Shown here: positions 12,385-27,627 of the stretch, piece after piece
Layout of the letters: every line of letters begins with the position of its first letter
Numbering within the stretch: position 1 is the first letter of the stretch
Origin: a virus
Taxonomy: Duplodnaviria > Heunggongvirae > Uroviricota > Caudoviricetes
IMG/VR virus record: IMGVR_UViG_3300021254_000030
Strand: one strand, 5' to 3'
Length of the DNA: 28,643 nucleotides
Made by a program: the position numbers and the translations under genes
Notes under the pieces: generated by a model
What the model was told of the DNA's origin: nothing
What the model saw: the letters and a program-made list of their open reading frames with translations, nothing else
The model's database searches: none

Positions 12385-13368
12385 TTATCTATTTTTAAAG
12401 AGTTCTTTTAAATCGAAAACAATCAATGATAACTGTTCTGCTTGATCTCTTGTAATATTAATAATCTTCTTACCTTTACCTAAATATTTATCGGTAATTT
12501 CTGTAATATATGGAGCGTAATGTGCTTGCTCTTCTTTTGTTAAAGAAGATAACATAGTATTACATTCTGCATATAAATCATCAAAATTGAGTTCGGTAGA
12601 TGCAGTATTTATATTTCTATCATTCGTAACAAACTCTTTACCTGCATATTTCGCTTCTTCATCAATAGCTTTATTCAAGGCTTCAACAAGAGAATCATAT
12701 GAAAAATTAACTTCTGGTTCCATATATTTGAAGCGCGATCCGCAATCAATAGTTCCATCTAAAGAACGAAGTGTTAAAACTCTTTTTGGGACATTATCTC
12801 GAATAACAGTATGAGCATAGCAATAAATATCTACCATATCTTTAATAATTAAATTATAGCTATTACCTAATGTAGGGACGATTTGATTATACTATGTTCC
12901 ATCTTGTCTTTTAAAAGTTTTATCTTTATCGTGAGAAATAAATAATACGGCATAGCCAAGCTGAGTAACTGATCTAAAAGTATCTTCTAGTTCTCTCTTT
13001 ACTCGTGACCAGCCTTGACCATATGGAATTTGGTTAAGAGTGTCAACTCCCGCTTGAGAAATAACATATTTTTCACAGGCGGCCGCCGCAATATCAATGG
13101 TATCAACTATAACAGAATGAAACCGTTCTTTTACTTCTGGCTTTTTTAATTCTCGTAAAATCATTTTCATTTCTGCCCAAGTTGTAACGTCTTGCGCGAA
13201 CACATTGGGAAGAGCATTGTATCCTTTTTCAAAAGCTAAAATAAGGGCGCCAGGCATTTGGCTACCAAAAGTAGTTTTACCAATTTTACCTGGGCCGTAA
13301 ATATATGTGATATATCCGCTTAAATCTCTACTAACTTTGTGAGGCTATAGTTTTGTTAAATCAATCAT
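12385..13368 (-). CDS. P-loop ATPase (AAA_24/Sak4-like ssDNA annealing or recombination protein), 327 aa with 2 TAG
   Basis: Joins two track ORFs: MIDLTKLXPHKVSRDLSGYITYIYGPGKIGKTT, AFEKGYNAL, VIVDTID, FISH, KRQDGTXYNQIVPTL. TAG at codons 8 and 159; AGGAG RBS. Confidence 0.82.
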
Positions 13369-13417
13369 AAAAAATCTCCTTTACTATTTTCTTATTTCAT
13401 ACTCATAGTATACAATA

Positions 13418-13450
13418 AAATGGAAAGAATAAATTTCATTCTTTCCATTT
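13418..13450 (-). terminator. hairpin/terminator after the SSB-like gene
   Basis: 13-bp inverted repeat AAATGGAAAGAAT/ATTCTTTCCATTT. Confidence 0.65.
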
Positions 13451-13459
13451 ATATATTAA

Positions 13460-14431
13460 TTAAAAATTAAAACCACCTTCAGGAACAACATTTGAAGGAA
13501 CCGGAATTGCACTAGAAGCGGGTGTCGCCGAAGCACGCTGTCTCTCCTCGTAATACTTCTTCGCGCTTGCTTTCTGGTCTTCCAAATAGGTATTTCTATC
13601 GGCAATTACCTGTTCAAGTTCTGCTTTTGTAATAGTCTGAGGATCATCAAATACATAAGGCTGAGGCTGTGCCCAAGTAATTACCCATTCTCTCTCATGT
13701 CGGAAGCTAGAGTCAACAACTGCTTCACCAAAAGCATTTTCCATTTTCTTCTCAATCTTGATTGTAGTATTAACAATCTCTCCCCTTACTTGTGTATAAA
13801 TAGGATTACTCTGAGACGCTCCCAGGCCAAGAAAATAATTTACAGAACCAGATGCTTTAGAATCTTTTGCAACAAGAGTAAAAGGCAATAGCGCATTTTT
13901 AAAATCAAAGATTGCGGCGTTAATTCTTACAAAATCTTCGTTAATATTATGCTCGGGATCTGCTTCTACCAAAGTAACACCGTTAATAATTACATCAAAT
14001 TTAAATTTATTTCTGGCAATAGGGTCAGGATTAAGAGTAGAAACAAATGATACAAAACCACCTTCGTTTCTTTGCTGAGACACAAGCTGGTCTCCGCCAT
14101 TAGGGAAATAATCATTCAATGCAGCGGCTGTGTTTAGACGAACCATCATTGCCATATCCTTACCATCCTTAAGCCATGTCTTACCAGTCTCAAGAATCTG
14201 CTTTAAGTTTACAAAAGTATTACTTACTGCCCCAGAACCTGTAAGTTCTTTAACAAATGTATAATGAACAGGAATTACATTCAATCCCTCTTCGTCTGTT
14301 GCTATATTCAAACTTCCTGTAATATATTCAACACCAAAATTCTTTGAATTTTTATTTGTAACGGTTTTCATCTGAAGATTATGGTCATAAAGTCTGCCTT
14401 CGATTACTTCTTCATTAATATTCTTTCTCAT
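13460..14431 (-). CDS. putative single-stranded DNA-binding protein
   Basis: 323 aa, beta-rich, low-complexity linker and aromatic tail (EGGFNF), in a replication cluster with its own promoter. The function is inferred. Confidence 0.6.
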   Translation of the reverse strand: MRKNINEEVIEGRLYDHNLQMKTVTNKNSKNFGVEYITGSLNIATDEEGLNVIPVHYTFVKELTGSGAVSNTFVNLKQILETGKTWLKDGKDMAMMVRLNTAAALNDYFPNGGDQLVSQQRNEGGFVSFVSTLNPDPIARNKFKFDVIINGVTLVEADPEHNINEDFVRINAAIFDFKNALLPFTLVAKDSKASGSVNYFLGLGASQSNPIYTQVRGEIVNTTIKIEKKMENAFGEAVVDSSFRHEREWVITWAQPQPYVFDDPQTITKAELEQVIADRNTYLEDQKASAKKYYEERQRASATPASSAIPVPSNVVPEGGFNF

Positions 14432-14486
14432 TCTTTTTTCTCCTAATTTTTTTGTTTATTTATTTTATTCTTTATTTTATAATAAT

Positions 14487-14515
14487 ATTATATAATAAAT
14501 TTTTATAAAAATCAA
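14487..14515 (-). promoter_or_regulatory. sigmaA-type promoter
   Basis: Minus strand TTGATT-17-TATAAT. Confidence 0.7.
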
Positions 14516-14517
14516 AT

Positions 14518-25893: not shown

Positions 25894-25921
25894 ATTATTT
25901 CTCCTTTTAATTTCTATAATA

Positions 25922-25950
25922 ATTATAGCAAAATTTTTATAAATTTGCAA
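25922..25950 (-). promoter_or_regulatory. sigmaA-type promoter for the gyrB operon
   Basis: Minus strand TTGCAA-17-TATAAT with TG. Confidence 0.8.
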
Positions 25951-26023
25951 AAAATTTTAAATTTGTATACATTTCCTCATTCTTTTAAAATTTTTAAGTC
26001 AATAGATTCATGAGCCATCGCAC

Positions 26024-26052
26024 TTGACATTTCAAAAATTTTTCACTATAAT
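26024..26052 (+). promoter_or_regulatory. perfect-consensus plus-strand promoter
   Basis: TTGACA (26024-26029), 17 nt, TATAAT (26047-26052). Confidence 0.8.
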
Positions 26053-26058
26053 ATAAAA

Positions 26059-26154
26059 AAGAAGAATAAATGACAAAAGTGGGTAGAGTCTATTATACAT
26101 ATATCTATAGACAAAAATAAAGGTGTGTAGTATTAATGCTACACACCTTTTTTA
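26059..26154 (+). ncRNA. candidate ~95-nt small RNA (or 16-codon micro-ORF at 26070..26120)
   Basis: Bounded by the consensus promoter and a strong terminator; internal GTCTA/TAGAC inverted repeat. No family recognised. Confidence 0.4.
26113..26154. terminator. bidirectional intrinsic terminator after the endolysin
   Basis: AAAGGTGTGTAG/CTACACACCTTT stem with T-tracts on both strands. Confidence 0.85.
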
Positions 26155-27627
26155 TTATATTGCCTAAACATATCTATAATTAACAAATCCATAAATTTTA
26201 TTATCTATACGAATATAATACCAAGTAGTTCCATTTTTAGCTTGGATGCTATCACAAACCTAAATAACTTTATCTTTATAAATAAATGGTATACTCTTTA
26301 ATGGATTATATTCAGTTCCCGCCCAGCTTCTTACATATAAAGCATTGGCAGTTACTTTAGCTTTAAAATAACAATAACGTATTGGAGAAGGTTTGCCAGT
26401 TCTTGTAAATTCAGTCTGTGAAATAGCTATTAACTTTTTATCAACTACATTAATAGGCTAGATAGGTTTAGTCTATTCTTTTTTAGGTGCGGCCGCCGCA
26501 TCTTTATAATTAGGAATAGCGTATCCGCGGATATTACCATTTGCTACTTTTAAAGTTTTTCTAGCAACCACTCCGCCGTTTCCTGTATTTCCTTCTATTG
26601 TAGTAATAGTATTTCCTTCTACTTTTTCTACAATCCCGATATGATCTGCAAAACCGTCATTAGGTTGTGTTCCATCGTCCCAGTTATAAGTAATAATCCA
26701 GCCTGGTTCAGGAGTTACAGATCCATCCTATTGCCAAATACCTTTTTTCTTAAATATTTGGATATGTCTTTCAACTCCGCACTATGTTCCTCCAATCAAA
26801 TCAACAGCGTTATTTTTAATAAACGCCGCAGATAATGTCGTATCGCAATAGTCATCAGTATATTTTACTTTATAGCCAACAGCAAGAGGTTTATGATTGT
26901 TATAAATATCTATAATAGGTTTATGAGTCTGTTTAGCCATACTCATACCTATCCATCCTGCCATCGTATTAATAATATCCTGCGCGGAGACCCTTTCCGC
27001 GGGAGCCGGCTATACCTTTTTAGTTTTTGTTTTCTGCTATTGATAGCACCAATTCATATCGACGTTTCCAGAAATTCCCTTTACTTTTCCTTTGCTAGAA
27101 TACTGATGATAAATACAATCATAATGAGGAACATCATTATAATCGGCAAGCCATACTATATATTTTTTTATTGTTGAAGCATCATACCAGTTTTTATAAT
27201 AATCTTGGTTTAAATAAAATCCAGCTTTGTATCCTTGACTTTCAATATAATCACAAAAGGCATTTGTAAAATCAATACAATTAGTTCTTGTTAATTTAAT
27301 ACCTTTCTTTTTGGCACTATTTACTGTATCATATTCAAAATCATAGAAAATAATAATATCTTTACTAAGGCCCGCCTCTTCAACGTTTTTAATGCAAGAC
27401 TTAGCTTCTTTTATTGCGTCATTTTTATTTAATGCATACGCAAAATGATATACGCCATGAATAGCAATGCCCGCATCTTTAAATTTTTTTACATTTGTTA
27501 AGAAATGCTTATCTATTGCTTGTCTATATCCCTATCTAATAATGACAAAATCTATCCCATCATCCTTAACTTTTTTAGCGTCTATATTTCCTTGCCATTG
27601 AGAAATATCTATACCTTTTAAAGTCAT
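26155..27627 (-). CDS. endolysin: GH25 muramidase + CHAP + SH3b-like cell-wall-binding domain, 490 aa with 9 TAG
   Basis: MTLKGIDISQWQG, IIFYDFEYD (DxE), WLADY, GNVDMN; CHAP DYCDT..DHIGIV..TIEGN; C-terminal ALYVRSWAG..WYYI..YGFV. One frame, interrupted only by TAG; AAAGGAG RBS. Confidence 0.9.

Follow-up and report, generated by a model that had tools for sequence, protein, structure and literature searches.

We find that the amber codon TAG is very probably a sense codon for glutamate in an uncultured rumen or gut phage represented by the Caudoviricetes record IMGVR_UViG_3300021254_000030 of IMG/VR. The stretch analyzed here (hereafter the window) has a length of 28,643 nt, and all of its genes are encoded on the minus strand. 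Many of the conserved ones are broken if read with the standard code. Readthrough of TAG restores nine of them, which together hold 40 in-frame TAGs, and Pfam domains span the TAG positions. TAG stands in frame in essential genes and is never used as a stop in the window: the 29 genes end in TAA (22 genes) or TGA (7 genes), none ends in TAG, and TAA never occurs in frame. Translation in this phage stops at TAA and TGA only. If TAG is counted as glutamate, it accounts for about 7% of the glutamate codons of the window (40 TAG versus 457 GAA and 82 GAG). A first-pass annotation made from the sequence had proposed that TAG may encode glutamate rather than the glutamine of genetic code 15, and the comparison with related phages bears this out. 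When TAGs of the window and of the related genomes of the same type (Glu-type), shorter sequences included, are placed in conserved alignment columns, 179 out of 207 fall in glutamate columns, 8 in aspartate, 6 in lysine and 4 in glutamine columns.

Relatives were collected using the topoisomerase B-like protein of the window (23980-25950) as query, which returned 204 related loci in IMG/VR; 80 of them, with 66-93% identity, were kept. Eleven large records (G002, G003, G006, G010, G012, G014, G016, G021, G022, G026 and G025) were taken whole. Among these, the Glu-type relatives G002, G003, G021 and G026 are complete or near-complete, and G010, G014, G016 and G022, which have neither a suppressor tRNA nor any in-frame TAG, served as standard-code references. 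In a FastTree phylogeny of the topoisomerase protein, G002 and G003 lie within the well-supported clade of the window, while G006 and G025 form a sister pair with a clade support of 100%. When the region was compared with INPHARED phages by megablast, no match emerged, and a protein search of INPHARED with the topoisomerase subunit gave best matches of at most 36% identity, that is, no annotated close relative in this collection.

A column was defined as conserved if at least five relatives agree at 80% or more, and only the best-supported reading frame of each region was used. An unfiltered run had produced spurious alignments of TAG with leucine, lysine or tyrosine in nearly all loci, arising from out-of-frame and antisense open reading frames, and these were gone after the frame filter. 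In the filtered data, all six window TAGs at conserved columns fall in glutamate columns and none in glutamine columns. The corresponding counts of glutamate columns are 39/45 for G002 and 37/44 for G003 (no glutamine column in either), 30/33 for G021 (one glutamine column) and 33/40 for G026 (two glutamine columns). As controls, true glutamate codons fall in glutamate columns in about 93% of cases, and true glutamine codons fall in glutamine columns in about 91% and in glutamate columns in about 3%. Set against true GAA/GAG and CAA/CAG codons, the TAG profile is that of glutamate and not of glutamine in the window and in the four relatives. Restricting the reference to the four standard-code genomes gives glutamate at 38/51 positions in G002 (two glutamines), 38/56 in G003, 25/36 in G021, 23/28 in G026 and 3/3 in the window. 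Judged by these alignments, the TAG columns show the same evolutionary profile as glutamate.

The obvious competing explanation is that TAG encodes glutamine as in code 15, with the glutamate-like contexts being tolerated Glu-to-Gln changes that arose by GAG-to-TAG mutation. All described phage amber reassignments go to glutamine (10.1101/2021.08.26.457843; PMC10607447; with mass spectrometry in PMC9523058), and a few window sites have a glutamine plurality, namely KLxPH (Q13/E7, where x denotes the TAG position) and a C-terminal site (Q4/E3/K3). The sister pair offers a direct comparison. Using the same pipeline as for the Glu-type genomes, TAGs at conserved columns face glutamine at 18/26 positions in G006 and at 27/42 in G025, with two glutamates each; with standard-code references only, glutamine is found at 13/18 and 19/24, respectively. 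The method can thus yield glutamine where this is the correct reading, and for the lineage of the window it does not do so. Counted on distinct positions of the reference G010, TAGs of Glu-type genomes stand on 276 glutamates and 49 glutamines and those of G006 on 19 glutamines and 8 glutamates (Fisher p 2e-9); for the other three standard-code references, p for the same contrast ranges from 2e-8 to 4e-11. If TAG were glutamine, synonymous CAG-to-TAG changes should fill glutamine columns as they do in G006 and G025. The Glu-type genomes do not show this, and their pooled distribution is the reverse of that of true glutamine codons. Together with the catalytic positions and suppressor tRNAs described below, these data make a glutamine reading of the window very unlikely.

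The preference for glutamate can also be followed at individual sites of the window. For this, domains were assigned with Pfam and PHROGs, window codons were aligned to the orthologous codons of relatives, and the residue opposite each TAG was counted. All peptide contexts quoted in the first-pass annotation were recovered on TAG readthrough. In the DnaB-like helicase gene (10012-11562; Pfam DnaB and DnaB_C), the TAG of NRGPxYL (11302-11304) faces glutamate in 17/18 relatives and a second one (11473-11475) lies at a variable site (K9/Q3/D3). Five TAGs had initially been counted in this frame, three of which are located upstream of the real start codon. The Sak4-like/AAA_24 ATPase gene (12385-13368; PF13479, phrog_124) also has two TAGs. 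The one within DGTxYNQIVP (12892-12894) faces glutamate in 32/34 relatives and in all four standard-code relatives. The other, within KLxPHKVSRD (13345-13347), had been singled out as glutamine-like and is variable in relatives (Q13/E7/K5). The RecJ-like exonuclease gene (6281-8041; Pfam DHH, DHHA1 and RecJ_OB) contains three TAGs (6320-6322, 7667-7669 and 8009-8011), of which the first, in QIFIxDY, is matched by four glutamates, four TAGs and one valine in nine relatives and by glutamate in 3/4 standard-code relatives.

The gene at 14518-15378 carries TAGs in MKFxNT (15367-15369; glutamate in 28/32 relatives) and NFxGAMRG (15343-15345; glutamate in 22/32). It had been labeled ThyX-like, a label we reject as there is no Pfam or PDB match; the gene corresponds to phrog_6721, of unknown function, and is conserved in 39 relatives. 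The adjacent gene (15378-16346), encoding a transmembrane helix, a coiled coil and a GIY-YIG nuclease domain (Pfam GIY-YIG), has by far the highest TAG density in the window, with 16 TAGs per 322 codons, 14 of them in the poorly conserved coiled-coil part. Its FEILxKC site (15477-15479) faces glutamate in 40/51 relatives, the site at 15855-15857 has 27 glutamates and 10 TAGs in 46, and the FWIxMY site (15429-15431) is mixed and largely acidic (D16/E10/Q6). The coiled-coil sites are variable, with lysine as the plurality residue at ten of them. In the endolysin gene (26155-27627; GH25, CHAP and C-terminal binding domains, PF01183, PF05257 and PF13457), which has nine TAGs, glutamate is found in 13/17 relatives at GGTxCG (26782-26784), IWQxDG (26728-26730) has 11 glutamates and 3 TAGs in 14, and IIRxGYR (27532-27534) has TAG11/E5/D3. 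The single TAG (19076-19078) of a small zinc-ribbon gene (18902-19096), in IIKxG, faces D4/E3. Thus, of the roughly 11 TAG sites for which a glutamate consensus had been claimed, eight show clear glutamate and three (FWIxMY, IIRxG and IIKxG) are mixed acidic. Two genes were uninformative: the GIY-YIG homing-endonuclease gene (21622-22377; Pfam GIY-YIG plus helix-turn-helix; four TAGs), with only one or two orthologs, and a small gene (23470-23769; TAG at 23542-23544), whose single ortholog has glutamine.

We further trained a site-weighted likelihood classifier on the non-TAG codons of the window itself, with 2000 bootstraps over sites. With window data only, glutamate ranks first (log-likelihood -98.2 nats), ahead of glutamine (-107.8) and lysine (-118.4), and beats glutamine in 1953/2000 bootstraps. 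Control sets of true glutamate, glutamine, lysine and aspartate codons were each correctly assigned in 300/300 trials. This analysis also bears on the suggestion that TAG encodes aspartate, lysine or a non-canonical amino acid, or that the TAG-containing genes are pseudogenes or products of low-level readthrough only. The aspartate and lysine columns in the pooled set and the lysine plurality in the coiled coil could be taken in its favor. These minorities, however, match the substitution profile of true glutamate codons, and lysine, asparagine and aspartate all lie at least 20 nats below glutamate in the window likelihood. Pseudogenes or mere readthrough are likewise at odds with TAGs that occur in genes both essential and conserved (DnaB, RecJ, lysin), are common to relatives and never act as a stop. 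We consider this group of explanations exceedingly improbable.

Glutamine in place of the catalytic glutamate of the GH25 DxE motif, or at the position of I-TevI E75, should abolish catalysis. PDB alignments place the catalytic glutamate of the GH25 DxE motif at residue 98 of the window lysin, and three relatives (L009, L011 and L019) have TAG at this catalytic glutamate, within a DFE motif. Alignment to I-TevI (1LN0/1MK0) equates E75 with residue 301 of the window GIY-YIG protein and E62 with the TAG-encoded residue x290. In one relative (L040) the E75 equivalent is encoded by TAG, and in three others (L048, L060 and L071) TAG stands two residues upstream of it. In the phrog_6721 family, six relatives carry TAG at the conserved glutamate of PLYWWKE. 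At x32 of the lysin, the PDB alignment offers L, S and A and does not settle the residue. TAG at catalytic glutamates, where glutamine should inactivate the enzyme, argues against a glutamine reading and for glutamate in most of the protein product.

Next, we consider the tRNAs that might read TAG. No tRNA gene was found in the window, nor in the nearest record (G001) and contig (L001). Phages of the family carry 11-34 tRNA genes, and a tRNA with the anticodon CUA was found in G002, G003, G021, G026, G006 and G011-G013. The family's own glutamate and glutamine tRNAs differ in several features. Among 22 tRNA-Glu, A73 is present in 21, the first pair is never U-A or A-U, G2.U71 occurs in 15 and the D arm has 16-19 nt. 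Among 18 tRNA-Gln, 15 have G73, 16 have U1-A72 or A1-U72, none has G2.U71 and the D arm is mostly 15 nt. The CUA tRNAs of G002, G021 and G026 have C1-G72, G2.U71, C3-G70 and a 17-nt D arm, and that of G003 has G1.U72 and G2-C71, with an acceptor stem identical to that of the tRNA-Glu(UUC) of the same genome. A73 is found in three of these four tRNAs; that of G002 has G73, as in tRNA-Gln. The CUA tRNA of G006, with a C1.U72 mismatch, G2-C71, G3-C70, G73, G10 and a 15-nt D arm, is the only one with the combined features of tRNA-Gln (weak 1-72 pair, G2-C71, G3-C70, G73 and short D arm).

Covariance models for the two isotypes, built from Glu and Gln tRNAs of the family itself, separate the two kinds of suppressor. 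Scores with the Glu and Gln models are 71.4 and 54.4 bits for G002, 67.8 and 45.4 for G003, 74.5 and 53.7 for G021, and 71.8 and 53.1 for G026, that is, 17 to 22 bits in favor of Glu, and the Glu scores of the four (67.8-74.5 bits) compare with 70-83 bits for true Glu tRNAs. For G006 the order is reversed (41.2 and 65.6 bits, Gln ahead by 24). The tRNA isotype and the type of TAG column are concordant in all five genomes. The suppressors of close relatives thus score as tRNA-Glu, contrary to what a glutamine reading would predict. Variable-loop length (absence of nucleotide 47) was tried as an isotype mark and rejected, as within this family Glu and Gln tRNAs cannot be told apart by it; among the CUA tRNAs, those of G002 and G003 have a 4-nt variable loop and those of G021 and G026 do not. 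The suppressors of G002 (L111:3032-3104) and G003 (L114:5592-5668) occupy a common locus directly after tRNA-Ser(GCU) and are only about 55% identical; this divergence together with the Glu acceptor stem of the G003 copy suggests that suppressors were re-derived from Glu tRNAs more than once, or arose through gene conversion by them.

The identity elements of tRNA-Glu in E. coli are U34, U35, C36, A37, U11-A24, U13-G22:A46 and the lack of nucleotide 47; amidotransferases rely on U1-A72, with G1-C72 as an antideterminant (PMC9976931). Compared with the determinants of the E. coli glutamyl-tRNA synthetase (GluRS), from which the host enzyme may differ, the CUA tRNAs have U35 and A37, have A36 for C36, and have U11-A24 in three of the four. 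The first-pass annotation had postulated an amber tRNA lacking U1-A72. That much agrees with the C1-G72 or G1.U72 pair of the Glu-type relatives; by covariance-model score and acceptor features, though, the molecule is a tRNA-Glu body with a CUA anticodon and not a tRNA-Gln that lost its determinant.

Based on these features we propose that TAG would be read by a phage-encoded CUA suppressor with a tRNA-Glu body, marked by a strong or G.U 1-72 pair, usually G2.U71, usually A73, and a 17-nt D arm. To judge from its relatives, the genome of the window probably carries such a tRNA as well. The host GluRS would charge it with glutamate. Despite A36, one natural candidate for the charging enzyme would be a GluRS of the non-discriminating kind, for which C36 and G36 are both acceptable, in a host that is presumably a Bacillota-type bacterium. 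Sequences resembling the lysin point only loosely to Bacillota-type lysins or such a host, and a search with the lysin against genome contigs found no relative. Lacking the weak U1-A72 pair, the charged tRNA would be neither amidated to glutamine by GatCAB, since amidotransferases rely on that pair, nor taken up by glutaminyl-tRNA synthetase (GlnRS), which the strong first pair together with A73 would disfavor. No gene with PF00749 (GluRS/GlnRS) or PF00472 (release factor) was found in G002, G003, G021, G026 or G006.

Several observations weigh against a pure glutamate reading. About 14% of TAGs at conserved columns lie outside glutamate columns (D, K, Q), glutamine is over-represented opposite TAG at variable sites, and TAG sites of related genomes depend in part on one another. 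On the tRNA side, the evidence comes from relatives that share 86-88% identity with the window in the topoisomerase subunit. A36 replaces C36, a strong determinant for the E. coli GluRS, so that charging by GluRS is plausible only, and when the CUA tRNAs were compared with 424 phage tRNAs by global pairwise identity, no isotype stood out, the top matches being a mixture of Asn, Lys and Glu. Some of these points could indicate that TAG is ambiguous and specifies a mixture of glutamate and glutamine, through partial amidation by GatCAB or competition of GluRS and GlnRS for the CUA tRNA. CUA anticodons attract GlnRS in E. coli (PMC9976931; 10.1101/2021.08.26.457843), the G73 of the G002 suppressor is tRNA-Gln-like, and TAG falls in glutamine columns in 4/207 cases versus 12 of about 2950 for true glutamate codons. 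Nevertheless, C1-G72 or G1.U72, plus A73 in three of four tRNAs, would disfavor recognition by GatCAB and GlnRS, and the TAGs at catalytic glutamates oppose a large glutamine share. The small glutamine excess at variable sites is expected from the single CAG-to-TAG transition, although a minor glutamine component would fit it too. Overall, we regard a mixture as unlikely, and glutamate as very probably the meaning of TAG in this phage.

Phages with a code unlike that of their host have been stated to use only TAG-to-Gln and TGA-to-Trp (Borges et al. 10.1101/2021.08.26.457843). In phAss-1, glutamine was assigned from a TerL alignment and tRNAscan (PMC10607447), and in crAss-like phages glutamine at TAG was confirmed by mass spectrometry (PMC9523058). 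A search of the full-text literature turned up no description of TAG-to-Glu for phages or prokaryotes. The phages described here resemble code 15 phages (crAss-like, Lak, the Garnet and Amethyst clades, and phAss-1) in having in-frame TAG in essential and late genes, large genomes with many tRNA genes, their own tRNA(CUA) (here seen in relatives), no synthetase of their own, TAA and TGA stops, and a host that presumably uses the standard code. They differ in the predicted residue, glutamate instead of glutamine, and in the suppressor body, tRNA-Glu instead of tRNA-Gln. The family itself includes a code 15 lineage, G006 and G025, which TAG columns and tRNA alike set apart.

TAG as glutamate is otherwise known only from the nuclei of peritrich ciliates (NCBI table 30, which we checked). 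That code shares the reading of TAG as glutamate, but it is eukaryotic and nuclear, TAA also encodes glutamate and TGA is the sole stop, whereas here TAA is the main stop (22/29) and a phage tRNA would act in a bacterial cell. Amber suppressors made in the laboratory from tRNA-Glu (PMC9976931) likewise combine a tRNA-Glu body with CUA, and there too Glu and Gln identity are distinguished by the first acceptor pair and by the architecture of the D arm. In contrast to these, the present case is a natural, conserved and genome-wide viral use, with C1-G72/G2.U71 in place of the E. coli G1-C72/U2-A71, and with charging as a prediction.

Taken beyond the window, we think it likely, with good confidence, that TAG-to-Glu is a natural code, undescribed for any virus or prokaryote, and used by a widespread group of large phages of the rumen or gut. 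Within one phage family, amber would then mean glutamate in some lineages and glutamine in a sister lineage through a tRNA-Glu or tRNA-Gln suppressor body, with other members being TGA-to-Trp or standard. With TAG as glutamate, standard tools would mistranslate the proteins of this phage; for amber-recoded phages, annotation tools offer no code other than 15. Public translations of the group would then carry glutamine for glutamate, catalytic residues included, which would affect structure prediction, enzyme mining (lysins and nucleases) and proteomics searches. GluRS would be a further host synthetase, besides GlnRS and TrpRS (the tryptophanyl enzyme), through which phages can change the code. 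A family with four codes (standard, TGA-Trp, TAG-Gln and TAG-Glu) would be a natural system for studying switches in codon meaning, in which the switch appears due to a change of tRNA body and not of ribosome or release factors, and it would provide a source of naturally evolved amber suppressors that insert glutamate.

Other features of the window and its family deserve mention. A gyrase/topoisomerase A-like gene of the window is split into two parts (22563-23072 and 19662-21488; whole region 19662-23072) by an insert that contains the homing-endonuclease gene at 21622-22377 with its four TAGs. In G002, a tRNA-Glu(UUC) (L111:6989-7063) was missed by ARAGORN and recovered with Rfam RF00005 and with the family's Glu model (70.6 bits). 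G011, G012 and G013 possess a third type of tRNA(CUA) (L135:5295-5371, L136:5669-5745 and L137:138-214), with G1-C72, C2-G71, a 4-bp D stem and the loop UUCUAAG. Its scores with the two isotype models are about equal (55 bits for Glu and 50 for Gln), and G012 is almost without in-frame TAG.

In G012 (L172-L177), TGA stands opposite tryptophan at 9/10 sites with agreement between two or more standard-code relatives. By such alignments the phage family also contains TGA-to-Trp lineages, which, together with the standard-code genomes G010, G014, G016 and G022, makes four codes in one family. An opal suppressor tRNA(UCA) of 96 nt (L135:7094-7189) has homologs in G012, G013, G015, G018 and G020, and tRNA-UCA genes were further located at L136:3932-4027, L140:7393-7488, L142:5763-5858 and L143:4619-4715. 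These tRNAs have an extra arm of 26-27 nt after the UCA anticodon arm, which folds as GGGU-CUCCAAA-ACCC and shows compensatory changes between genomes. By its sequence, the extra arm mimics the anticodon stem-loop of tRNA-Trp (CCA) and may serve as a decoy that recruits TrpRS.

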